From the IMG/VR virus record IMGVR_UViG_3300044630_006741: DNA of 64,000 nucleotides; one strand, 5' to 3'. The position numbers were made by a program, and so were the translations under genes. Source of the DNA: an uncultured virus (IMG/VR IMGVR_UViG_3300044630_006741). Its lineage: Duplodnaviria > Heunggongvirae > Uroviricota > Caudoviricetes. The notes under the pieces are model-generated. The model was given only the letters and a program-made list of their open reading frames with translations, made no database searches and was not told where the DNA came from. Each line of letters opens with the position of its first letter. Positions within the stretch are counted from its first letter, which is position 1. Shown piece by piece: positions 7,455 through 41,556 of this stretch.

Positions 7455-7967
7455 TTAGATCAACTGAGATCCGCTTCCTTTTTTGGTTCCCTTTGGTACA
7501 TTTCCTGTTAGATCCCCCCATTCAAAAATCACGTCTCCGTCTGTTGTCATATAGACAGATTTAGACTCGCTAGGCGTGTTGTAGATTTCCATTGTGCACC
7601 ATTTATCTGGCTCTTGCCTGTAGCTTATAGAAACCCCCGACCCGTAGTATGGGTTATCAAAAGCTTTAATGGCTTTCTCTGGCAGAATGTAATGAATGGT
7701 TTGTAGTATGCCATCCGACCATTTCATGATCTGATATGCTTTACTGTCACCAGATTTAACCAGATCTAGAGCTTCACTTCTAAGGGCTCTTTCTTCTTCC
7801 TGATTTTCCGTTTCCTTCATCTTCAATTCAGTGCCGGTTTTTCCAATTAGGCTGGCTAATTGTTTTGCGGCTTCAACCATTCTAGGTGTTTTGTTTCTCA
7901 TCTTGTTATCCGTTGAGCTATCTGTGTCCATTTCAAATAGCTGCTTAAAGCTTTTTAGTGTTTTCAT
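7455..7967 (-). CDS. hypothetical protein with N-terminal tag
   Basis: MKTLKSFKQLFE; GATATATA upstream on the minus strand. Confidence 0.8.
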   Translation of the reverse strand: MKTLKSFKQLFEMDTDSSTDNKMRNKTPRMVEAAKQLASLIGKTGTELKMKETENQEEERALRSEALDLVKSGDSKAYQIMKWSDGILQTIHYILPEKAIKAFDNPYYGSGVSISYRQEPDKWCTMEIYNTPSESKSVYMTTDGDVIFEWGDLTGNVPKGTKKGSGSQLI

Positions 7968-8025
7968 GTCTTTATATATCAGTTCCGTCCAAAAATTAAG
8001 TCACTTGAGCGTGATATATAAAGAT

Positions 8026-28869: not shown

Positions 28870-29011
28870 CAAGAGATATTGGAACTTTTTTTAGAACCAA
28901 TATATAATCATAGTAACTGTTCGCCAGTTCTGTGTCCAGCAATCTTGAGTTGCTGTTGAGATTTAGAAATGAATCGATGATACAGGAAGAACAAAAAAAG
29001 AATAGTAAAAT

Positions 29012-29986
29012 ATGAAAACAAAACAAAAAAGCGGAGCTAGCCTACCGGCTGCCTGGATCGTAAATCCAAAAGACAAAGGTAGGAAGTCAATCAAAGGAGA
29101 TAAGATCTATCTCGATAACGGACAGGAATTTGAAATTGAAATCTTCAATCCTCTCACTGAATCAGTTCTAGCTGATATCCGTTTAAATGGCAACTCAATT
29201 TCTAAAACTGGATTGGTTATAAAACCGGGACAGAGAGTCTATCTGGATTGCTTCGTAGATGACAGAAAGAAATTCATCTTCCAAACCTATGAGGTTGACG
29301 GAAGTCAGGAGTCAATAGAAGCAATTGCTGATAATGGTCTTATGGAGGTCTTCTTCTATAAGGAGCAAGCAGTGGCACTTCAGGACTGGAGCAATAGATT
29401 CCATAAGGTAATCGTTCACGAGTATCGTCCCTATTATTATCCAGTGTACCCTGCAATTTATCATAGACCATACTACTACGACGGTACTGTTATATGCTCA
29501 GGTTTATTGACAACGACATCTAACCTTACCTTCACAAATGGAACGTATAACACCATAAATGCAACGAATAGCTACCTGGTGAATAATAGCGTTACTACTG
29601 GAGCTATTAATACCAACACTTCTAGCTTCCTAGGATCCACATTATCGGGGGATGCATCATACTACTCATCTCCTGTTAGTGTGCCTATTGAAACCGGCAG
29701 GGTCGAGAAGGGAGAAAAATCAGATCAGCAATTCTCCTCGATCGATATGGAATTTGAAAAAAATTACATACACCACTTAGTATTTCAATTGCTACCAAGT
29801 TCTAGAAAGCCTAAGTATGTTAAAGAGATGCAGAAGGCTAAGAAGGCAGAGGATAAGAATAGAGTCTTAGATGGAAATGATGAAATAATAGATCTCATTA
29901 AAAAGCTAAGCGATCTGCACTCATCTGGGATTTTAACCGACGAGGAATTCTCAAATAAGAAGTCAGATCTATTGTCAAAAATTTAA
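29012..29986 (+). CDS. hypothetical protein with C-terminal SHOCT domain
   Basis: IKKLSDLHSSGILTDEEFSNKKSDLL. Confidence 0.8.
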   Translation: MKTKQKSGASLPAAWIVNPKDKGRKSIKGDKIYLDNGQEFEIEIFNPLTESVLADIRLNGNSISKTGLVIKPGQRVYLDCFVDDRKKFIFQTYEVDGSQESIEAIADNGLMEVFFYKEQAVALQDWSNRFHKVIVHEYRPYYYPVYPAIYHRPYYYDGTVICSGLLTTTSNLTFTNGTYNTINATNSYLVNNSVTTGAINTNTSSFLGSTLSGDASYYSSPVSVPIETGRVEKGEKSDQQFSSIDMEFEKNYIHHLVFQLLPSSRKPKYVKEMQKAKKAEDKNRVLDGNDEIIDLIKKLSDLHSSGILTDEEFSNKKSDLLSKI

Positions 29987-30008
29987 AAAAATAGCGAACA
30001 GTTACACT

Positions 30009-30034
30009 AAAAGGAACCTCGGGTTCCTTTTTTT
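30009..30034 (+). terminator. intrinsic terminator
   Basis: AAAAGGAACC-TCG-GGTTCCTTTTTTT. Confidence 0.8.
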
Positions 30035-30098
30035 ATTTGATCCTCCGTGTTTCTACGGAATCTTTATTTACTTTTGGCTAAAGAATAAAACATGAAGA

Positions 30099-30617
30099 AT
30101 GGCTATAAAAGACATGGTAATATCAAAAGGTAGAAAAAAAGGTATAATACACACACGGGATATCACATTGGATGATATACGTGAAGTGTTCTTTCCTAAA
30201 GACTTTAATGAAAAATATGGTTACCTGGGATACATTTACACCTCAGACGATGGCGATGTATGTAAAGTAATACGACCACTCGTACTTGCTATGGACAAGA
30301 AAGCCAAACCAAAATGGTGTCCGAGATGGTTTCTACGATTATTAGATTTGGTTGGTAACGATAAGTCTATTGTTCGTGTGCGTAACTATAAAGTGAGTAA
30401 GCTATTCCAAAGAATAACCAAGGGAATGAGATTCATGGACTGGAAGACAAAATGGGAATGGTATGACTTACGCATCAGTATTGTAGCAGACCAAGAACTA
30501 CAAGACATGGCTTCTAGGATTGAGAGAGATTATTACAAGAAGGGCAAACAAAAAGATGCTCTTATTGAATTAATGAAAGAAGATGAGAGAAATGGATTAT
30601 ATGATGATGTTCTATAA
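30099..30617 (+). CDS. hypothetical protein (early-type promoter)
   Basis: CGG-N10-TACTTTTG at 30056. Confidence 0.8.
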   Translation: MAIKDMVISKGRKKGIIHTRDITLDDIREVFFPKDFNEKYGYLGYIYTSDDGDVCKVIRPLVLAMDKKAKPKWCPRWFLRLLDLVGNDKSIVRVRNYKVSKLFQRITKGMRFMDWKTKWEWYDLRISIVADQELQDMASRIERDYYKKGKQKDALIELMKEDERNGLYDDVL

Positions 30618-30629
30618 AATTAAAAAACT

Positions 30630-31451
30630 ATGAAAAACGTACATTTGTTACCAACAGACAAACCAAGCAGGTTATATAACAATAATGGTCAATTGCATTT
30701 AGATAGTGTTTCAACAACTTCTAATGGACATACGATTAACCAAAACATCTACATCACTAATGATGAGGAGATTAAATTTGATGATTATTATTTAGGTGAA
30801 GATAATAATCTTTATTGTTTAGTATCTAAAGTTAATTCTAATGGTAAAAAAATCATTTTAACAACAGACCAAGAATTAATAGATGAGGGTATTCAACCTA
30901 TAGATGATGAGTTCTTAGAATGGTTTGTTAAGAATCCAAATTGTGAGGAAGTTTTTCTTACTTATGAGTATGTGCAAGTCAATCAAGGCAATCCAATATT
31001 AAGAGGTAGTACTAATGTATCACATAGGTACGAAATCATCATTCCACAAGAAGAACCTAAACAAGAAACACTCTCAACTAAATTGCATATAGGTGAAGTA
31101 GTTGATGAATCATACCCAGAAGCATTTAGAAAACAAGAAACACTTGAAGAACCTAAACAAGAAACACTCTCAACTAAATTGCATATAGGTGAAGTAGTTG
31201 ATGAATCATACCCAGAAGCATTTAGAAAACAAGAAACACTTGAAGAAGCTGCTATTTTAAACTGCCAAAGTATAACTCATCCTTATTGTGATAGAGAAAA
31301 ATTAATGTTTATTAAAGGTGCTAAATGGCAAGAGGAGAGAATGTATAATGAGGAAGAAGTATTAGAAATCATAAGACAATATGCTCTTGAAGAACATTTA
31401 ATAACATCAAGTAAACCTGATATATGGTTTGAACAATTTAAAAAGAAATAG
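30630..31451 (+). CDS. hypothetical phage protein with internal 96-bp tandem duplication
   Basis: MKNVHLLPTDKPSRL...KQETLEE; 31050-31145 equals 31146-31241. Confidence 0.8.
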   Translation: MKNVHLLPTDKPSRLYNNNGQLHLDSVSTTSNGHTINQNIYITNDEEIKFDDYYLGEDNNLYCLVSKVNSNGKKIILTTDQELIDEGIQPIDDEFLEWFVKNPNCEEVFLTYEYVQVNQGNPILRGSTNVSHRYEIIIPQEEPKQETLSTKLHIGEVVDESYPEAFRKQETLEEPKQETLSTKLHIGEVVDESYPEAFRKQETLEEAAILNCQSITHPYCDREKLMFIKGAKWQEERMYNEEEVLEIIRQYALEEHLITSSKPDIWFEQFKKK

Positions 31452-31454
31452 GTT

Positions 31455-31832
31455 ATGATACAGGACAAAGAAAATCAAACACCACCAATAGCTGCAGCTA
31501 TCGTAGTAATGGCAATATTAATTGGAATCTCATTTGCTATTTTTAAAGCGGGGGAACGTGGAGCCTCCGATAAACAACATTATGAGCAACCCGCTATCTC
31601 AGACTCGGTAAAACCAGCTCCAGAACAACCCCATGAATCAAAGGAGGATAGTTTAATAAAACAGCTATATCCTATTTGTGTGGTTGAAGTAAATAAATCT
31701 ACTCATAAAGAGTATAAGTGGGAAGTGGTAGCAGAGAATGGTTTGATGTATTATACCAATAAGAAACCAAAAATTGGTGATCCTGCTTTTTATATCGGCA
31801 GTGACAGCGAAACGTTATATTGGACTAAATAA
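31455..31832 (+). CDS. membrane-anchored hypothetical protein
   Basis: N-terminal TM segment. Confidence 0.7.
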   Translation: MIQDKENQTPPIAAAIVVMAILIGISFAIFKAGERGASDKQHYEQPAISDSVKPAPEQPHESKEDSLIKQLYPICVVEVNKSTHKEYKWEVVAENGLMYYTNKKPKIGDPAFYIGSDSETLYWTK

Positions 31833-31853
31833 GTTACGGATAAAGAAGAAAAA

Positions 31854-31979
31854 ATGGATCGAATAGAAATACACTGGATGACACTTATAGTAAGTACAGT
31901 CTTATTAGCGCTACTGTTAGCCCGTCTTATAAAGGAACACATACAGGAAAAGCGCTGGGAAAATAGAAATCGTAAATAG
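31854..31979 (+). CDS. 41-aa membrane peptide
   Basis: MDRIEIHWMTLIVSTVLLALLLARLIKE... Confidence 0.5.
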   Translation: MDRIEIHWMTLIVSTVLLALLLARLIKEHIQEKRWENRNRK

Positions 31980-32007
31980 AAAGTTACGGTACAAAGATAA
32001 AACAACT

Positions 32008-32193
32008 ATGGAGAAGTTAATAACGAAATTAAAGACCTTGCAAGACAGGCAAAAGGAATTAATGTCTATGATGGCAGAAGAAAAGTATGACAATTTTATT
32101 TCCGTTTTAAGGGCTAAAGGATATGCTGATAGCATTATAGAATTAGAGGCAAAAATAGAAGTTTTAATGGATGCTATATCCATATTAAGATAG
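32008..32193 (+). CDS. small coiled-coil protein
   Basis: ORF track. Confidence 0.6.
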   Translation: MEKLITKLKTLQDRQKELMSMMAEEKYDNFISVLRAKGYADSIIELEAKIEVLMDAISILR

Positions 32194-32211
32194 CAGTAAA
32201 ACAATATACAT

Positions 32212-32303
32212 CGGTGTTACTGCGGGAATCACACATATATTTGCAAAATAAATTAAAAAAGGATCTGAAAAAGACCGAAACAAAAAAGAGAATCTGATAT
32301 ATA
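32212..32303 (+). promoter_or_regulatory. tandem promoters of tRNA operon 1 (early-type and GAAAC...GATATATA type)
   Basis: CGG-N8-CGG-N10-TATATTTG at 32212-32243; GAAACAAAAAAGAGAATCTGATATATA at 32277-32303, similar to 35795-35820. Confidence 0.7.
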
Positions 32304-32314
32304 AAAACCAAACA

Positions 32315-32464
32315 ATGAGAAACACTCAGAAAAATATGGCAATTATTAACCCGGCGAATCCGAAAGGATTTATCGCAGAGGCAGTGAAGCAGCAAGGCTT
32401 TTTTGCGTGGGAGAAAGGGATATGCCCAGGTCTGGAGTTTCGATTTAGTTTACAGGAAAGATAA
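32315..32464 (+). CDS. 49-aa attenuator leader peptide of tRNA operon 1 (not in ORF track)
   Basis: MRNTQKNMAIINPANPKGFIAEAVKQQGFFAWEKGICPGLEFRFSLQER*; residues 5-36 use only the 12 amino acids of the downstream tRNAs. Confidence 0.8.
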   Translation: MRNTQKNMAIINPANPKGFIAEAVKQQGFFAWEKGICPGLEFRFSLQER

Positions 32465-32521
32465 GATTTAAACTAAATATCACATTGAAACTCCAGATCG
32501 AAAGTCTGGAGTTTTTTTTTT
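32429..32521 (+). terminator. antiterminator/terminator pair (attenuator 1)
   Basis: terminator AAACTCCAGA..TCTGGAGTTTTTTTTTT 32488-32521; competing helices 32429-32441/32487-32499 and 32443-32452/32469-32478. Confidence 0.85.
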
Positions 32522-32525
32522 ACAT

Positions 32526-32599
32526 GGGGTTATAGCTTAAATCGGTGAGAGCGACGGTCTGAAAAACCGTAGATCCGGACTCGAGGCCCGGTATCCCCA
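32526..32599 (+). tRNA. tRNA-Phe(GAA)
   Basis: ACGGT-CTGAAAA-ACCGT anticodon arm; atypical T-loop. Confidence 0.85.
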
Positions 32600-32640
32600 C
32601 AAAAGAATCTGATCAACGGATTAGATGCAGAAGATTAAAT

Positions 32641-32714
32641 ACATCATTGGTGAAATTGGCTAATCATCTTGGACTCCAAATCCAAGGTTCTGGGTTCGAA
32701 TCCTAGATGGTGTG
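32641..32714 (+). tRNA. tRNA-Trp(CCA)
   Basis: TTGGA-CTCCAAA-TCCAA; GGTTCGAATCC. Confidence 0.9.
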
Positions 32715-32747
32715 CAGAAATAAGTTCTTTGACATATTGGAAACCAT

Positions 32748-32820
32748 AATTCCTTAGCTCAGTTGGTAGAGCGCCTCCCTTACATGGAGGAGGCCGCAGG
32801 TTCGAGCCCTGCAGGGATTA
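32748..32820 (+). tRNA. tRNA-Val(TAC)
   Basis: CCTCC-CTTACAT-GGAGG. Confidence 0.9.
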
Positions 32821-32829
32821 CTTAATTAT

Positions 32830-32902
32830 GCTCGGTTCGTCTAGAGGCCTAGGACATCCCCCTTTCACGGGGAAAACATGGATTCGAATTCCATACCGAG
32901 TA
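32830..32902 (+). tRNA. tRNA-Glu(TTC)
   Basis: TCCCC-CTTTCAC-GGGGA. Confidence 0.9.
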
Positions 32903-32975
32903 CAAACATATTAAACAAGAAATTGCCTCGCTAAACTAACCAGGTTTAGCAAGACAAAAACAGGTTTAGCATAAT

Positions 32976-33063
32976 GACCTCGTGGCGCAATTGGTAGCGC
33001 AACTGACTTTTAATCAGTAGGGAAGCTGTATAGCCGTTGTGGGTTCGAGCCCCACCGGGGTCA
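32976..33063 (+). tRNA. tRNA-Lys(TTT) with unusually long variable region
   Basis: ACTGA-CTTTTAA-TCAGT then about 20 nt of variable region. Confidence 0.85.
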
Positions 33064-33065
33064 CT

Positions 33066-33181
33066 TTAGCGATGGTGGTAACGCGCTTTGAGGAGAAAGT
33101 AGCTTTGGACCTGCAAGTCCAGTCAAGCGAAGAGTATCCAATTAGGAGGATAATTCCACTCGTCACTTGCAGGTGACGTAA
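33066..33181 (+). ncRNA. putative structured RNA inside tRNA operon 1
   Basis: non-coding GC-richer spacer with hairpins GGAC-CTGCAA-GTCC and CGTCACTT-GC-AGGTGACG. Confidence 0.4.
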
Positions 33182-33183
33182 AT

Positions 33184-33257
33184 GGGGTAGTAGCTCAGCT
33201 GGTTAGAGCACATGACTGTTAATCATGTGGTCATAGGTTCGAATCCTATCTACCCCG
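33184..33257 (+). tRNA. tRNA-Asn(GTT)
   Basis: CATGA-CTGTTAA-TCATG. Confidence 0.9.
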
Positions 33258-33264
33258 CTAAAAA

Positions 33265-33337
33265 GCGGAAGTAGCTCAATTGGTAGAGCGCGGCCTTGCC
33301 AAGGCCGAGGTTGCCGGATCATTCCCGGTCTTCCGCT
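33265..33337 (+). tRNA. tRNA-Gly(GCC)
   Basis: CGGCC-TTGCCAA-GGCCG; atypical T-loop ATCATTC. Confidence 0.9.
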
Positions 33338-33345
33338 CAAAAAAT

Positions 33346-33418
33346 GCGATAGTAGCTCAATTGGTAGAGCACCGTCCTTCCAAGTCGGGGGTCGCAGGTT
33401 CGAGCCCTGTCTATCGCT
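33346..33418 (+). tRNA. tRNA-Gly(TCC)
   Basis: CCGTC-CTTCCAA-GTCGG. Confidence 0.9.
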
Positions 33419-33429
33419 CACCCAAAGAT

Positions 33430-33501
33430 AGCGAGGTAGCTCAGAGGCAGAGCAACCGACTCATATTCGGTAGGTCAGGATCTCGGAATTCCTCCTCGCT
33501 A
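33430..33501 (+). tRNA. tRNA-Met(CAT)
   Basis: ACCGA-CTCATAT-TCGGT; atypical T-arm; Ile2 identity not excluded. Confidence 0.8.
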
Positions 33502-33507
33502 CTATAT

Positions 33508-33578
33508 TGTCCCTTCGTCTAAGGGCAGGACAGCTGATTTTGATTCAGCTAATGGTGGTTCGAATCCATCAGGGACAA
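33508..33578 (+). tRNA. tRNA-Gln(TTG)
   Basis: GCTGA-TTTTGAT-TCAGC. Confidence 0.9.
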
Positions 33579-33589
33579 CAATTTAAAAT

Positions 33590-33664
33590 ACTCAGGTAGC
33601 TCAATTGGTTAGAGCACCTCGCTGATACCGAGGAGGCCTGAAGGTTCGAGTCCTTCTCTGAGTA
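33590..33664 (+). tRNA. tRNA-Ile(GAT)
   Basis: CCTCG-CTGATAC-CGAGG. Confidence 0.9.
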
Positions 33665-33671
33665 CTTAATT

Positions 33672-33746
33672 CGGGATGTAGATCAGTTGGATTAGATCGC
33701 CTGGTTTGGGACCAGGAGGCCGCAGGTTCGAGTCCTGCTATCCCGA
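33672..33746 (+). tRNA. tRNA-Pro(TGG)
   Basis: CCTGG-TTTGGGA-CCAGG. Confidence 0.9.
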
Positions 33747-33753
33747 CTAAAAT

Positions 33754-33826
33754 GGGCCGGTAGCTTAAGAGGCTAAAGCGCTGCACTTGCAATGCAGAAT
33801 ATTGGGTTCGAGTCCCACCGTGTCCA
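33754..33826 (+). tRNA. tRNA-Ala(TGC)
   Basis: CTGCA-CTTGCAA-TGCAG; G3:U70 pair. Confidence 0.85.
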
Positions 33827-33834
33827 CTAAATTT

Positions 33835-33907
33835 GCTCTCATAGCTCAATGGTCAGAGTCGGACGCTTATATCGTCAAGGTTGCAGGTTCGAGTCCTGTT
33901 GGGAGTA
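33835..33907 (+). tRNA. tRNA-Ile(TAT)
   Basis: GACG-CTTATAT-CGTC; canonical T-arm. Confidence 0.8.
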
Positions 33908-34034
33908 CAAGTTTCCAATATAAAATTAAAAGTTCATCTGGTTTTCTGCGGAATCCTGTTCTATATTTGTAAAGTAATTAAAAACTTAGGCATGAAGGAA
34001 GGAAAGGAGTTTAAACTAAAAAAGGGTAACTAGA

Positions 34035-34355: not shown

Positions 34356-34453
34356 AGTTAGGTGGCGGAATGGTAGACGCACAAGACGGGCGATGCATTT
34401 AAAACAGAAATAAGCCTGGTCGGTTTTTACAGGTTCGAATCCTGTCCTGACTG
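34356..34453 (+). ncRNA. tRNA-scaffold RNA, copy B
   Basis: AGTTAGGTGGCGGAATGGTAGACGC-[insert]-TACAGGTTCGAATCCTGTCCTGACTG. Confidence 0.75.
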
Positions 34454-34724: not shown

Positions 34725-34843
34725 AGTCAGGTGGCGGAATTGGTAGACGCTGCTGTGGGGCGACACCACTCTTTTAAAAACAGCATAAGCTCTTGCAATG
34801 ATGTACACATTGCAAGGTACAGGTTCAAGTCCTGTCCTGACTA
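34725..34843 (+). ncRNA. tRNA-scaffold RNA, copy C
   Basis: AGTCAGGTGGCGGAATTGGTAGACGC-[insert with TGCTG/CAGCA and CTTGCAATG/CATTGCAAG stems]-TACAGGTTCAAGTCCTGTCCTGACTA. Confidence 0.75.
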
Positions 34844-34924: not shown

Positions 34925-35004
34925 AGTCAGGTGGCGCAATTGGAAAACGCAACTCGCGGTGTACACAGAGGAGTGAATTACAGGTTCGAGTCCTGTCCTG
35001 ACTA
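34925..35004 (+). ncRNA. tRNA-scaffold RNA, copy D
   Basis: AGTCAGGTGGCGCAATTGGAAAACGC-[short insert]-TACAGGTTCGAGTCCTGTCCTGACTA. Confidence 0.7.
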
Positions 35005-35219: not shown

Positions 35220-35382
35220 AGTCAGGTGGCGGAATTGGTAGACGCTATCGTACTCAAGTAAGGCAAAGCAATGTAGATGAAACGTCGTCGCATGGTGAGT
35301 TAACACCTAAAAGTCTTTGGACTTGAAATCCAAAAAACCTTGAGTATGTTCTACGATACAGGTTCGAATCCTGTCCTGACTA
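35220..35382 (+). ncRNA. tRNA-scaffold RNA, copy E
   Basis: same ends; about 110-nt insert closed by TACTCAAG/CTTGAGTA. Confidence 0.75.
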
Positions 35383-35407
35383 CAAAAATTAAAATCTAAG
35401 GTAATAA

Positions 35408-35772: not shown

Positions 35773-35830
35773 CAAAAAATAATCGAAATTAGAAGAAACA
35801 AAAAGATGTTCTGATATATAATAACATAAT

Positions 35831-35923
35831 ATGAAAAACTTGATCCATACATCCTTACATTTATCCACCACGAGTACCACTTGTGATTCGGATTTATTGT
35901 GGAGGAGGCTAATGGATCAATAA
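35831..35923 (+). CDS. 30-aa attenuator leader peptide of tRNA operon 2 (not in ORF track)
   Basis: MKNLIHTSLHLSTTSTTCDSDLLWRRLMDQ*; residues 6-23 use only H,T,S,L,C,D, the amino acids of the downstream tRNAs. Confidence 0.8.
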   Translation: MKNLIHTSLHLSTTSTTCDSDLLWRRLMDQ

Positions 35924-35975
35924 TAATATTGAATTTTGATTCTGAAAAAGCCTCCCCTAAAAAGGAGGCTTTTTT
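35904..35975 (+). terminator. antiterminator/terminator pair (attenuator 2)
   Basis: terminator AAAAAGCCTCC-CCTAAAAA-GGAGGCTTTTTT 35945-35975; competing GGAGGCT at 35904-35910 inside the leader ORF. Confidence 0.8.
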
Positions 35976-36005
35976 ATTGGCTCTTTGATTTATTAGATTT
36001 AACAC

Positions 36006-36089
36006 GGAAGAGGAATCACAGCGGCCTGTGAGCTAGTCTTGAAAACTATGCGTACCTCCGGGTATTGGGATCGACACCTACCTCTTCCG
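36006..36089 (+). tRNA. tRNA-Ser(TGA)
   Basis: TAGT-CTTGAAA-ACTA, long variable arm, G73. Confidence 0.8.
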
Positions 36090-36097
36090 CTTTTTCC

Positions 36098-36173
36098 GGG
36101 GCCTGTGGTGTAATGGCTTGCATAACACACTGTCACTGTGTAGGTCGGGGTTCGAATCCCCCAGGTCCCGCCA
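36098..36173 (+). tRNA. tRNA-Asp(GTC)
   Basis: ACACA-CTGTCAC-TGTGT; encoded CCA. Confidence 0.9.
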
Positions 36174-36175
36174 AT

Positions 36176-36263
36176 GGAAGATGATCCTAAACGGAGATAG
36201 GATCCGCCTGCTAAGCGAGATGTTCGGGTAAAACCGGATGAGGTTCGATCCCTCCGTCTTCCG
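36176..36263 (+). tRNA. tRNA-Ser(GCT)
   Basis: CGC-CTGCTAA-GCG, long variable arm. Confidence 0.8.
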
Positions 36264-36268
36264 CAAAC

Positions 36269-36341
36269 TCCAGAGTAGCTCAATTGGTAGAGCCCTTGTT
36301 TTGTAAACAAGTGGTTGTCGGTTCGATTCCGTCCTCTGGAT
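36269..36341 (+). tRNA. tRNA-Thr(TGT)
   Basis: CTTGT-TTTGTAA-ACAAG. Confidence 0.9.
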
Positions 36342-36346
36342 CTAAT

Positions 36347-36419
36347 GACACCGTGTCTGAATGGTTTAGGTCCAGGTCTGCAAAACCTTGGTACGTGGGT
36401 TCGAATCCCTCCGGTGTCT
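36347..36419 (+). tRNA. tRNA-Cys(GCA)
   Basis: AGGT-CTGCAAA-ACCT; U73. Confidence 0.9.
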
Positions 36420-36425
36420 CTATAT

Positions 36426-36500
36426 GGTGTCTATAGTGTCAGCGGTATAGCACGACGGGTTGTGGTTCCGTTAGCACCAGTTCGAATCTGGTTAGACACA
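36426..36500 (+). tRNA. tRNA-His(GTG)
   Basis: ACGGG-TTGTGGT-TCCGT; G-1 present. Confidence 0.85.
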
Positions 36501-36507
36501 CTAATAA

Positions 36508-36592
36508 GCCCCGGTGGCGAAACAGGCTATACGCACCAGACTTAAGATCTGGCGATCAGTGAATCGTGTGGGTTCGAATCCCACCCGGGGTA
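36508..36592 (+). tRNA. tRNA-Leu(TAA)
   Basis: CCAGA-CTTAAGA-TCTGG, variable arm. Confidence 0.9.
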
Positions 36593-36624
36593 CATAATTT
36601 TTTGTACTTTGATATATAGGTATT

Positions 36625-37224
36625 ATGATTGAAGGATACAAAAAATACCAAAACGGATTTGTCAAAGACCCAGCTTCTTACTTGTTAAAAGAAGAAGAAA
36701 ACGTTACTGCCAGCACAAGCCTGGTAACACCGAAAACTCTTAATGATTTTTCGGAATCAATATCATCCTCCCTGAATGAGAGAATCGGTGACGAGTATGC
36801 TGCTCACTATTTCTATAGAAATGCTGCCAATTGGTGTAAAAATGTCAATTATAAAAATGCCACAGCATATTTTGAAGCTGAGGCTGCCAGCGAATTAGAT
36901 CACGCTAAGGGATTACAAGACTACCTGACACAGTGGAACCTAATGCCTGCTATTCCTGCTGCTCCAACGCAGCATTCTTTTGAAAATCTAGCAGATATTA
37001 TCAATAAGGCTTACGAGATAGAGTATGAGTTAATGCTTAAATACTCCGACAATCAAAAAGAGTTCTTAAATGATCACCCAGCAACTTTCAATTTTATTCA
37101 GAAATATGTTGATATACAGAATGAAGCTGTTGCTGAATACTCGGATCTTTTAAATGCTCTTAATCTAGTGGACATCAACAATAGATTGGATGTCCTTTAC
37201 TTCGAGAACAATTACTTCGGATAG
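36625..37224 (+). CDS. ferritin-like protein with N-terminal extension
   Basis: LNERIGDEYAAHYFY...EAASELDHA...AYEIE...QNEAVAE ferroxidase pattern. Confidence 0.85.
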   Translation: MIEGYKKYQNGFVKDPASYLLKEEENVTASTSLVTPKTLNDFSESISSSLNERIGDEYAAHYFYRNAANWCKNVNYKNATAYFEAEAASELDHAKGLQDYLTQWNLMPAIPAAPTQHSFENLADIINKAYEIEYELMLKYSDNQKEFLNDHPATFNFIQKYVDIQNEAVAEYSDLLNALNLVDINNRLDVLYFENNYFG

Positions 37225-37757: not shown

Positions 37758-38267
37758 ATGGAAAATCGACTTGACGGTAACTGGAGAAGACTAACAGATT
37801 CACAAGAAATTGAATTGCTGTCTTATATTAAATCCTGGATGGACGAAAATCCAGGACACAAGATCTATATTGGATGTGACTCCCAAAACAAGGGCAGATC
37901 TACAACTTATGCAACTGTCATAGTTCTACACTATCCTAGCGGTGGTGGACACGTCTTGTACAAAAAAGAGAAAATCGAAAAGGTGTCATCCAGTTTCGAG
38001 AGGCTCTGGAAAGAAGTAGAGCTTAGTGTGGAAATTGCTAATCTTTTAATAGATTCAGGTCTAGGTAAACCCGATTGCATAGACGTCGATCTAAATCCAG
38101 ATCCGAGATACAACTCAAATCAATTACTAAGAGCAGCTGTTGGTCTTATAGAATCCATGGGGATTCAGGCTAGATATAAATCGAAATCGCCATGGGCTAT
38201 TAGTATAGCTGACACTATGTGTAAAAGTAAGACGGGTAAGAAACCAAGAAAAAAACCAGTTAGATAA
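37758..38267 (+). CDS. RNase H-like YkuK (DUF458) family protein
   Basis: IYIGCDSQ...YATVIV...RLWKEVELS...IDVDLN...IAD. Confidence 0.8.
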   Translation: MENRLDGNWRRLTDSQEIELLSYIKSWMDENPGHKIYIGCDSQNKGRSTTYATVIVLHYPSGGGHVLYKKEKIEKVSSSFERLWKEVELSVEIANLLIDSGLGKPDCIDVDLNPDPRYNSNQLLRAAVGLIESMGIQARYKSKSPWAISIADTMCKSKTGKKPRKKPVR

Positions 38268-39369: not shown

Positions 39370-39429
39370 TTTCTCCGAAATTAACTTATTTGCTACGGAA
39401 TTTTTATGTATTATTGCGATAAGATTTTA

Positions 39430-41556
39430 ATGGAGAAAGAATATATGGAAAATTACGAGGAAGACTATGATCTAAACCTTTCGCCCTCTAACAAATACGG
39501 GGACGACGAAGACGATGACACACCAACAGGTGGTTTCAAATCATCGCAGAATAAATCATCAAAAACACCTGCACTAGACACCTATTCGAGGGATCTGACA
39601 GCTATGGCTGCTAGGGGTGAACTCGATCCTATTATAGGAAGAGATCACGAGATCGAAAGGGTGTCCCAGATTCTATGTAGAAGAAAAAAGAACAATCCGG
39701 TTCTAATAGGAGAACCCGGTGTTGGTAAATCAGCAATTGCAGAAGGTATCGCCATCCGAATAGTTCAGAGAAAGGTTTCGAGGAATCTTCTTAATAAAAG
39801 GATCATTAGTCTGGACATTGCCTCGATTGTGGCCGGTACTAAATACAGGGGTCAGTTTGAGGAAAGAATGAAGGCTATCATCGAGGAGCTAAGAGACGAT
39901 CCTAGTGTGATCATCTTCATTGATGAAATCCACACTATGGTTGGAGCAGGTGGAGCATCCGGATCCCTTGACGCTTCGAATATGTTTAAGCCTCCTCTTG
40001 CTAGGGGTGAACTCCAATGCATAGGTGCCACAACCCTAAACGAATATAGACAGCATATTGAGAAGGATGGAGCTTTGGAAAGAAGATTCCAGAAAATCAT
40101 CGTGGAAGCTCCAGATGCTGATACGACAATCAAGATCCTCAATAACATCAAGTCTAAATACGAGGACCACCACAACGTTACTTACACAGAGGATGCTATT
40201 CTAAATTGTGTTAAGCTAACAGAGAGATACATCACCGATAGAAATTTTCCAGATAAGGCACTAGATGCTTTAGACGAGGCAGGATCAAGAACACAGCTAA
40301 CAGAAGTTAAAGTTCCTGATGCAATCAAGAACCTAGAGAAGAATCTTGATAATATTCACATTGATAAAAAAGACGCAGTCACTAAACAAGACTACGAAGC
40401 TGCTGCTAAATTCAGGGACTTAGAAAGAAAGATCAGAGTTAATTTGGAGCTGGAACAGAAAAACTGGGAGAGTAAACTTAAGGAAGATCGAAAAGTGGTT
40501 GATGGAGATAAGGTAGCCGAGGTAGTTTCGATGATGAGTGGGGTTCCTTTGAAAAAAGTAACACAGGAGGAGAATGAAAAACTTGCTAATCTTGGTCCGG
40601 ATCTTAAATCTAAAGTGATAGGGCAGGATCCAGCTATCGAGAAAATAGCAAAGGCTATTCTTCGTAATAGAATGGGACTAAAAGATCCTAATAAACCAAT
40701 TGGCTCCTTTATATTCCTAGGTCCTACAGGGGTTGGAAAGACTCAACTTGCCAAAGAATTGGCAAAACAATTATTCGGGGATGCCGATGCTTTAATTAGA
40801 GTCGATATGAGTGAGTATATGGAGAAGTTTAACTCAACTAAACTCATTGGCGCACCTCCGGGCTATGTTGGTCACGAAGAAGGTGGGCAACTGACAGAAA
40901 AGGTTAGAAGAAAGCCATACTCGATAGTTCTTTTCGATGAGATTGAAAAAGCACACCCGGATATCTTTAATTCTTTGCTTCAAATTCTGGACGAAGGTTT
41001 AATAACCGACGGTCTCGGCAGAAAGATTAACTTCAAGAACACCTTGATTATTCTGACATCCAACGTGGGGCAGAGAAAACTAAATGAGTTTGGATCTAGC
41101 ATTGGATTCTCTAAGGACAAGGCGGAGAAGGCAAAAATAGAAGGCGAGATCCTACTTAAGAAAGAGCTGGAAAAAACATTTTCTCCGGAGTTCTTAAACA
41201 GACTTGACGAGATCATCTACTTTGATCCGCTGGCTAAGGAAAACATTATTAAGATCCTTGATGTCGAATTGGATATAATGAAACCTAGGTTTGAATCAAT
41301 TGGTATTAAAATCAAGATAACTGACACATTAAAAGAGAAGATAGCTGAGGTTGGCTACGATCCTAAATTCGGTGCTAGACCACTAAAAAGAGTTCTTCAG
41401 AAATACGTAGAAGACACTGTTGCTGAAACAATGATCAATAATAAGATCAATCCAGGCGATACCTTTACCCTTGACTTTGATCCTAAGAAGGAGGGAACGA
41501 CTTCTACTCCGGTAAAAGTTAAAATAACCGCCAAAAAACAGAAACCAACTGAGTAA
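39430..41556 (+). CDS. clpC: ClpC/ClpB-family AAA+ chaperone lacking the Clp-N domain
   Basis: two Walker A motifs (GEPGVGKS, GPTGVGKT), KYRG pore loop, UVR-like middle domain. Confidence 0.9.
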   Translation: MEKEYMENYEEDYDLNLSPSNKYGDDEDDDTPTGGFKSSQNKSSKTPALDTYSRDLTAMAARGELDPIIGRDHEIERVSQILCRRKKNNPVLIGEPGVGKSAIAEGIAIRIVQRKVSRNLLNKRIISLDIASIVAGTKYRGQFEERMKAIIEELRDDPSVIIFIDEIHTMVGAGGASGSLDASNMFKPPLARGELQCIGATTLNEYRQHIEKDGALERRFQKIIVEAPDADTTIKILNNIKSKYEDHHNVTYTEDAILNCVKLTERYITDRNFPDKALDALDEAGSRTQLTEVKVPDAIKNLEKNLDNIHIDKKDAVTKQDYEAAAKFRDLERKIRVNLELEQKNWESKLKEDRKVVDGDKVAEVVSMMSGVPLKKVTQEENEKLANLGPDLKSKVIGQDPAIEKIAKAILRNRMGLKDPNKPIGSFIFLGPTGVGKTQLAKELAKQLFGDADALIRVDMSEYMEKFNSTKLIGAPPGYVGHEEGGQLTEKVRRKPYSIVLFDEIEKAHPDIFNSLLQILDEGLITDGLGRKINFKNTLIILTSNVGQRKLNEFGSSIGFSKDKAEKAKIEGEILLKKELEKTFSPEFLNRLDEIIYFDPLAKENIIKILDVELDIMKPRFESIGIKIKITDTLKEKIAEVGYDPKFGARPLKRVLQKYVEDTVAETMINNKINPGDTFTLDFDPKKEGTTSTPVKVKITAKKQKPTE

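Follow-up and report, generated by a model that had tools for sequence, protein, structure and literature searches.

A 64,000-nucleotide (nt) stretch of DNA from an uncultured virus (IMG/VR record IMGVR_UViG_3300044630_006741), called the window here, carries two compact operons of transfer RNA (tRNA) genes on its plus strand between positions 32200 and 36600, and each is preceded by a short open reading frame (ORF). The first of these ORFs, leader 1, contains 32 consecutive codons that specify only, and all of, the 12 amino acids served by the tRNA operon behind it, a match that is far beyond chance. Together with the predicted folding of its RNA, this suggests that leader 1 is a ribosome-mediated (leader-peptide) transcription attenuator that would gate the phage tRNA operon, a reading to which we assign a probability of roughly 0.7. 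The attenuator reading is supported by the anatomy of the element, the register of its modelled switch, its codon choice, a second leader of complementary composition, and the covariation of peptide alphabet and RNA arms among related loci. The features of the first leader and its operon are as follows.

32239 to 32246, plus strand: Bacteroidota-type -7 promoter box of the form TAnnTTTG, read from the sequence as a possible host-type promoter of the leader transcript.
32293 to 32304, plus strand: 12-nt motif common to both leaders, ending 10 nt before the leader 1 ATG; a promoter-like or start-context element.
32315 to 32464, plus strand: leader ORF 1, 49 codons and a stop (32462 to 32464), encoding MRNTQKNMAIINPANPKGFIAEAVKQQGFFAWEKGICPGLEFRFSLQER.
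32327 to 32422, plus strand: putative regulatory run, codons 5 to 36, composed solely of the 12 amino acids of tRNA operon 1, each of which occurs.
32429 to 32452, plus strand: predicted antiterminator 5' arm (arm A), inside codons 39 to 46.
32469 to 32499, plus strand: predicted antiterminator 3' arm (arm B), the last 11 to 13 nt of which (32487 to 32499) are the terminator 5' arm.
32487 to 32521, plus strand: predicted intrinsic terminator, with a stem of 32487 to 32497 paired to 32505 to 32515 and a U-run at 32512 to 32521 (ten U).
32526 to 33908, plus strand: tRNA operon 1, 14 genes found by ARAGORN and Rfam, in the order Phe, Trp, Val, Glu, Lys, Asn, Gly(GCC), Gly(UCC), Met-type, Gln, Ile(GAU), Pro, Ala, Ile(UAU).
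32725 to 32740, plus strand: 16-nt conserved motif between tRNA-Trp and tRNA-Val, a probable boxA-type site.

An earlier note, made from the letters alone, had reported that residues 5 to 36 of leader 1 are restricted to Q, K, N, M, A, I, P, G, F, E, V and W with all 12 present, and all 32 codons are indeed in the set. The sampling of isoacceptors that it described was also found, as GGA, GGC and GGG and likewise ATT, ATC and ATA are all used. Its list of downstream tRNAs was recovered by ARAGORN for 13 genes, and the Met-type gene was added by Rfam (33430 to 33501, 50.3 bits, with a loop reading CAT). The set makes up 0.614 of the residues in the long ORFs of the window, which gives a chance of 0.614^32 = 1.7e-7 for the run, in line with the rough 1e-7 of the note; including the coverage of all 12 amino acids (0.157), the joint chance is 2.7e-8. 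A scan of the six frames of the 64-kb window, used as a control for the post hoc choice of the run, returned these 32 residues as the longest run for the set, followed by one of 19. Moreover, the runs of the two leaders are complementary: the leader 1 run has none of the six residue types of the operon 2 set, and that of leader 2 has none of the 12 of operon 1. Nucleotide bias does not explain the leader 1 alphabet, because in the same phage leader 1 is rich in GNN codons and leader 2 holds GAT only. It is true that the run boundaries were picked after the sequence had been seen, as would suit a spurious ORF that happens to lie beside a terminator. However, no equal run exists in the other window frames, and the run statistics, the shuffles, the array coverage, the independent second leader and the homologues described below make such a coincidence scarcely credible.

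The choice of codons agrees in part with the tRNA anticodons. Operon 1 anticodons can read each of the 32 codons in the leader 1 run under strict wobble, a test that is informative only for Ala, Pro and Val, which have U34 tRNAs. For these three amino acids, 8 of 8 codons end in A or G, compared with 46 to 58% in the phage genes (p = 0.0034). Similarly, the Leu codons that precede the modelled switch of leader 2 are TTA or TTG in five of five cases, as fits its tRNA-Leu(UAA) (p = 0.0067), and the Leu behind the switch is encoded by CTA. The Ser codons of leader 2 include both TCN and AGY, fitting the two Ser-type genes near it.

The RNA around the end of leader ORF 1 can form two competing structures. 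As the earlier note had proposed, 32429 to 32441 can pair with 32487 to 32499, and a second pairing brackets the stop codon at 32462 to 32464, joining 32443 to 32452 with 32469 to 32478. The U-run ends at 32521 and tRNA-Phe starts at 32526, so the stated distance of 4 nt is correct. The antiterminator and the terminator are mutually exclusive, as both use 32487 to 32499. A comparison of folding energies, which the note had called for, gave -24.7 kcal/mol for the antiterminator hairpin (32429 to 32499) and -15.2 kcal/mol for the terminator. The A:B duplex is stronger than those of 1000 out of 1000 shuffles of the A region, and the fold of the leader 1 region has a z score of -4.5. To place the switch, the ribosome was modelled as a 30-nt mask at each codon. 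When no pairs were allowed to span the ribosome, the predicted probability (P) of the antiterminator was at least 0.92 with the A site at codons 1 to 34, and that of the terminator was 0.97 from codon 36 to the stop, placing the switch at codon 35/36. This modelled switch coincides with the end of the cognate run (I36). The residues outside the set that follow the run (C37, L40, R43, S45, L46 and R49) all lie behind the modelled switch, where a stall would favor termination.

A second leader with the same organization precedes operon 2, about which the following features were recorded.

35810 to 35821, plus strand: the other exact copy of the 12-nt motif, with its end 9 nt ahead of leader 2.
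35831 to 35923, plus strand: leader ORF 2, 30 codons and a stop, encoding MKNLIHTSLHLSTTSTTCDSDLLWRRLMDQ.
35901 to 35920, plus strand: predicted 5' arm of the leader 2 antiterminator, which can also pair with codons 4 to 11 in untranslated RNA (a 1:2-type protector).
35936 to 35976, plus strand: predicted leader 2 antiterminator 3' arm (35936 to 35955) and terminator (35944 to 35975), with a U-run at 35970 to 35975.
35980 to 35996, plus strand: degenerate copy of the 16-nt motif, 12 of 16 positions by eye, directly behind the leader 2 terminator.
36005 to 36093, plus strand: atypical tRNA-like gene with a cloverleaf and the anticodon loop UGA (Ser, UCN), ahead of operon 2.
36098 to 36593, plus strand: tRNA operon 2, found by ARAGORN and Rfam, with Asp, Ser(GCU), Thr, Cys, His and Leu(UAA).

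Residues 6 to 23 of leader 2 form a stretch of 18 in which only H, T, S, L, C and D occur, exactly the amino acids of operon 2. This run is the longest for its set in the six window frames, followed by one of 10, and its chance is 3.9e-10, or 1.3e-10 when coverage is included. Leader 2 is built as a classical four-segment attenuator including the protector, with predicted energies of -18.7 kcal/mol for the antiterminator and -17.2 kcal/mol for the terminator, and its A:B duplex is stronger than those of 997 out of 1000 shuffles. In an equilibrium model the terminator wins at every ribosome position. In a co-transcriptional model, in which the RNA ends before the terminator 3' arm, the antiterminator is predicted with the ribosome at codons 1 to 20 and is lost at codon 21/22; the amino-acid run ends at codon 23.

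Both leaders resemble the usual gene starts of this phage, because the 9-nt core of the 12-nt motif ahead of them precedes many ATG ORFs: 17 of its 25 occurrences in the window lie no more than 33 nt before one. Exact copies of the full 12-nt motif are found only at 32293 and 35810 in the whole window. The form GATATATA(A/G) of the 9-nt motif stands 3 to 33 nt ahead of 17 ATG starts, with sites for example at 8013, 14308, 21668 (minus strand), 28351 (minus strand) and 36611, and is a candidate phage promoter or start-context element, which would imply very short 5' untranslated regions. A box of the TAnnTTTG form (the consensus being what we take to be that of Bacteroidota promoters), with TTG about 19 nt upstream, precedes leader 1 and also the homologous leaders of related loci.

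These homologues came to light through the atypical Ser-like gene, a conserved stretch of which retrieved 13 viral loci; 12 are related and 11 reach the head of the array. In 11 of these 11 the head consists of a putative Bacteroidota-type promoter, a leader ORF of 35 to 44 codons, a terminator, tRNA-Thr, the 16-nt motif and then further tRNAs, in the order Gln, Ser-like, Pro, Lys, Val, Tyr, Asn, Ile, His, Arg, Trp, Phe, Cys and Leu. Homologous leader ORFs of 34 to 44 codons are open in 19 related loci. Leader 1 is homologous to them, with a common start and, by eye, 29 of the first 39 bases identical to those of locus L155. The family alphabet comprises T, Q, S, P, K, V, Y, N, I, H, R, W, F, C, L and M and avoids A, D, E and G; tRNA genes for these four either follow only kilobases later, past protein genes and a terminator, or fall outside the sequence in view. 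In L154 and L162, the Gly, Ala, Asp and Glu tRNAs are within 214 nt, and there the leader does contain A, E, D and G. Relative to the family, leader 1 has H, C, S, T, Y, R and L replaced by A, G, E, N and I. Further leader alphabets occur among the arrays with the 16-nt motif, in L195, L241 and L244.

The agreement between leader and array was also measured across lineages. All amino acids of the array in view are present in 16 of 19 distinct leaders, a count made without L156 and L161; random windows of the same length from phage proteins cover the array set with a probability of 0.002 to 0.33. Pooled over 21 leaders, 544 of 729 residues belong to the leader's own set, compared with 435 expected. 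In a matrix of 10 leaders, from which near-duplicates had been dropped (L153, L154, L155, L156, L161, L164, L204, L216, L222, L237 and L243 left out), the mean z score was 1.78 for the own set and -0.03 for other sets, a result reached by 8 of 100,000 label permutations. Arrays reached by way of a tRNA-Leu-like 26-mer (L038, L101 and L076) had no set-matched leader in their internal gaps, which were inspected gap by gap. The head of the L038 array has an ORF and a terminator, but this array spans nearly all amino acids and is uninformative.

The RNA arms change along with the peptides. The terminator is conserved in the homologues, with compensatory changes in 6 of 10 pairs, and the leaders' own A:B duplexes reach -16.5 to -21.9 kcal/mol in 8 of 11 cases with three different arm sequences. 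Pairing arm A of leader 1 with arm B of other lineages yields only -8.8 to -13.8 kcal/mol. For the family leaders, the mask model predicts a change from antiterminator to terminator in the course of the ORF in five of nine, a mixed outcome in one and constant termination in three (L155, L159 and L164). The small ORFs could instead encode functional or arrest peptides, the hairpins being an ordinary terminator and a stabilizing stem and the match to the tRNA set a by-product. Such peptides would explain the conserved N terminus of the homologues (M-K/R-x-T/Q-x-K-x-M ... N-P). However, the homologues are only 11 to 32% identical to leader 1 and nevertheless keep the composition constraint, the A:B arms covary, and the residues outside the set lie behind the modelled switch. 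In addition, neither leader ORF matches a PHROG or Rfam family, and we consider a peptide function of this kind very unlikely.

The 16-nt motif may extend the reach of the attenuator over the whole array. There is one copy per array, always after the first tRNA(s) behind the attenuator. The degenerate copy behind leader 2 was not recovered by a search of the window at up to 3 mismatches. Among 11 arrays in which the motif lies no more than 60 nt after a tRNA, eight have a leader and a terminator, two have neither (L197 and L223) and one is cut. At least 118 viral loci have the motif; in 53 of 118, three or more tRNAs lie on the motif strand, and no ORF starts within 200 nt in 58 of 80. Bacterial genomes contain it as well, in at least 122 stretches, and among the titles listed for these, most name Bacteroidota genera. 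In 20 bacterial loci examined, the motif has a 16S-23S spacer position in 13 and no flanking match in 7; it follows a tRNA in 12 of 20 and stands 51 to 95 nt before the 23S 5' end in 7 of 20. As this position is that of the spacer boxA of ribosomal RNA (rRNA) operons, we read the motif as probably a boxA-type antitermination site that phages have borrowed for untranslated tRNA arrays. It is presumably similar to the E. coli boxA core. Like the rRNA-operon boxA, the motif occurs in 16S-23S spacers, here of Bacteroidota, and, in phages, lies ahead of untranslated RNA genes; unlike it, the phage motif sits in tRNA arrays behind an attenuator, as a putative NusB/NusE site. According to one report, the rRNA boxA prevents Rho-dependent termination in a long non-coding leader (PMC4807359).

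A different reading of the motif would confine the attenuator to the first tRNA(s), Phe and Trp here and Thr in the relatives, with the motif acting as an independent promoter for the rest. The motif does lie 7 to 13 nt before the next tRNA and often directly behind a terminator, as such a promoter might. However, the same motif occurs inside Bacteroidota rRNA operons between the spacer tRNA and the beginning of the 23S gene, a place in which no promoter would be expected, and the leaders cover whole arrays and are not enriched for F and W or for T alone. This restricted control is quite unlikely in our view, and the presence of the motif in rRNA spacers would fit one transcript that runs from the leader into the array. 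A sigma-70 or Bacteroidota promoter had also been considered for the motif and was judged less likely from its unfit spacing to the tRNA 5' ends and its occurrence in rRNA spacers.

The attenuator interpretation of the earlier note has held up in every sequence-level prediction open to testing, namely the promoter-like motif, the ORF, the exclusive hairpins, the modelled register of the switch, the second leader, the partly fitting codons and the homologues. From these features we infer translation of the ORF, termination, the switch, a role for Nus factors and a physiological trigger, which would act together as follows. Transcription would start upstream of 32315, and a ribosome would translate the 49-codon leader as RNA polymerase proceeds. 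With fast decoding, the ribosome at codons 36 to 49 or the stop would cover or unwind arm A, and with arm A blocked, arm B would pair with 32505 to 32515 to form the terminator, ending the transcript at 32521, 4 nt before tRNA-Phe. A ribosome waiting at any of codons 5 to 35 for one of the 12 charged tRNAs would leave arm A free to pair with arm B, and this more stable antiterminator would let the polymerase enter the 14 tRNA genes. The boxA-like site behind the decision point probably loads host Nus factors, so that the untranslated array would be transcribed without Rho termination. Leader 2 would apply the same scheme to the Ser, Asp, Thr, Cys, His and Leu set. The outcome would be a feedback in which slow reading of the codons of one set calls up the tRNAs of that set; the slowness might come from a mismatch in codon usage with the host, loss or cleavage of host tRNAs, or an amino-acid shortage.

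Several observations, however, speak against a switch of this kind. R2 and T4 of leader 1, and K2, N3 and I5 of leader 2, precede the modelled switches and yet fall outside the respective sets. Ser TCC (twice) and Thr ACC and ACT in leader 2 are not read by operon 2 tRNAs under strict wobble and need relaxed U34 wobble. When helices were allowed to close around the ribosome, the modelled antiterminator of leader 1 returned at codons 48 to the stop, so termination would require steric exclusion or a terminating ribosome that is slow to leave; both are also assumed for classical attenuators. Leader 1 has no 1:2 protector and its free RNA folds as the antiterminator (P = 0.996), so the untranslated RNA is predicted to read through. 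L155, L159 and L164 (3 of 11 leaders) are without a convincing antiterminator, L195 covers only 10 of the 15 amino acids of its own set, and L162 has an own-set z score of -1.4. The family leaders are related and their counts are not independent, and the tRNA sets compared are limited by locus ends, ARAGORN misses and the 1300-nt gap rule. Finally, if the 16-nt motif is a promoter, tRNA-Val and the genes after it would also be made independently of the attenuator.

Some of these points would suit an element that senses general translation capacity (ribosome supply, shut-off or elongation rate) and not specific codons, so that any slowing or lack of translation opens the operon. Leader 1 would then be expected to read through by default without a ribosome, as in the model, early residues outside the sets would act as triggers too, and an imperfect codon match for Ser and Thr would be of no consequence. 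A general sensor, however, does not account for leaders that keep to the amino acids of their own arrays and include all of them, for two window leaders with none of each other's sets, or for a composition that follows the array across lineages. It also leaves the A/G-ending Ala, Pro and Val codons and the TTR Leu codons unexplained, and we regard it as unlikely.

Leader-peptide attenuators that respond to more than one amino acid are known from the enterobacterial thr leader (Thr and Ile) and the ilvGMEDA leader (Ile, Leu and Val), and the trp, his, phe and leu leaders respond to a single one. The phage leaders resemble these attenuators of amino-acid operons in having a short ORF rich in regulatory codons, which we infer to be translated, and a terminator that competes with an antiterminator, between which the position of the ribosome would decide; leader 2 also shares the 1:2 protector pairing. 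Unlike them, the phage-encoded elements carry Bacteroidota-type signals and precede tRNA genes instead of genes for biosynthesis or transport, sample 6, 12 or up to 19 amino acids about one to a few times each, whereas the known leaders have runs of one to three, and, in the case of leader 1, are protectorless and predicted to be open by default. None of the Rfam leader families for Thr, His, Trp, Leu and Phe reached its gathering threshold in the window, the Phe_leader scores being 19.7 bits at leader 1 and 27.7 bits at leader 2 against a threshold of 55.

The pheM leader attenuates pheST, which encodes phenylalanyl-tRNA synthetase. It is similar to the phage leaders in placing a gene of the translation apparatus under leader-peptide attenuation tuned by the supply of charged tRNA, but it controls a synthetase, responds to one amino acid and belongs to a cellular genome. 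Likewise, T-box riboswitches use terminator and antiterminator structures to control translation-related genes by tRNA charging, but they bind uncharged tRNA directly and need no ORF, and no T-box match was found in the window at Rfam gathering thresholds. No description of leader-peptide control of tRNA genes or of phage tRNA arrays was found in the full-text literature covered, which lies outside the subscription journals.

While leader-peptide attenuation is textbook knowledge for amino-acid operons, the control of tRNA genes by a leader that samples their whole set would, if true, put the mechanism to a new use. It would also provide the first regulatory logic proposed for phage tRNA arrays, commonly regarded as cargo that is expressed constitutively, and would offer a testable answer to why phages carry particular tRNA sets and when they are used, be it for codon compensation or for rescue from host tRNA loss. 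Such leaders would be natural modular sensors of decoding capacity for single codon sets, and the rule that the leader alphabet equals the array alphabet could serve to find these elements and to define tRNA transcription units in metagenomic phages. A broader proposal, which we hold tentatively and at somewhat less than even odds, is that large phages infecting Bacteroidota use codon-set sensors in general. A mini-gene ahead of each tRNA block would sample every amino acid of the block, so that the phage would gauge for each set how well the infected cell decodes and replenish only the tRNAs that are missing. One trigger would be depletion of host tRNAs or their cleavage by anticodon-nuclease defenses, and a host-type boxA behind the decision point would keep the polymerase going over the untranslated array. 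Evolution would re-tune the leader composition after each splitting or reshuffling of an array, of which the two complementary operons of the window would be an example.

The window belongs to a large phage genome, in which a PHROG search identified tail-fibre-like, ATP-dependent protease-like and sugar-nucleotide genes; many of its ORFs have no PHROG family. Megablast of 29000 to 32520 returned no close relative among cultured phages. In a distant blastn search with operon 1, 0 of 817 cultured-phage records covered at least 80% of the query; the matches were scattered single tRNAs, the best of which took in 17% of it. Leader peptide 1 as a query had no relative among viral contigs. The stretch is present in lake and freshwater metagenomes, 14 runs of which contain at least half of the sampled words, and only small shares of it appear in RNA runs, as assembled contigs. 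Contigs of the runs X7, X9 and X11 are identical across the leader, and X14 has 13 differences over 32200 to 32903. Loci related through the ferritin-like ORF at 36625 to 37224 had a tRNA nearby in 0 of 14 cases and few tRNAs in their whole records.

Several tRNA genes of the region have unusual structures. The CAU-anticodon tRNA at 33430 to 33501 (plus strand), which ARAGORN missed, has an unusual T arm and is of the Met type, but could be an initiator or a lysidine-Ile tRNA. The tRNA-Lys at 32976 to 33064 (plus strand) is 89 nt long with a 19-nt insert in its variable region. The longer gaps of operon 1, at 33065 to 33183 (119 nt) and 32904 to 32975 (72 nt), contain hairpins and a repeated 10-mer and may hold further unrecognized small RNAs. 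In the atypical gene at 36005 to 36093, called by neither ARAGORN nor Rfam, the acceptor stem has 9 bp and the D stem 6 bp with a loop of 4 nt; the variable arm is long and the T stem short. This gene is conserved across 12 viral loci, where its stems show compensatory changes. Its architecture presumably resembles that of a selenocysteine-type or 'allo' tRNA.

Four further tRNA-like genes on the plus strand (34356 to 34453, 34725 to 34843, 34925 to 35004 and about 35222 to 35385) have a common acceptor stem, a Leu-type D arm and a T arm, with inserts of 15, 58, 40 and more than 80 nt instead of a normal anticodon arm. They score 43.5, 39.3, 37.3 and 25.1 bits with the Rfam tRNA model, and ARAGORN called none of them. 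Members of this insert-bearing family are common in viral contigs and occur there in multiple copies; the fourth one of the window is 98.8% identical over 168 nt to L105 and L058. They might represent introns, decoys or scaffolded RNAs.

Among the protein-coding genes nearby, a 93-residue ORF within the tRNA region has one weakly matching locus. The ORF at 30630 to 31451 (plus strand, 273 residues) contains an exact tandem duplication of about 32 residues, and that at 39406 to 41556 (plus strand, 716 residues) resembles an ATP-dependent protease or AAA+ chaperone (phrog_4871, E = 3e-241). The ORF at 37758 to 38267 (plus strand) belongs to a conserved type of about 150 to 170 residues (phrog_11311, no function assigned) that lies beside or within tRNA arrays, both in this phage and in its relatives, where it is found at 2896 to 3351 in L165, at 2716 to 3171 in L166 and at 7468 to 7923 in L167 (reverse complement).

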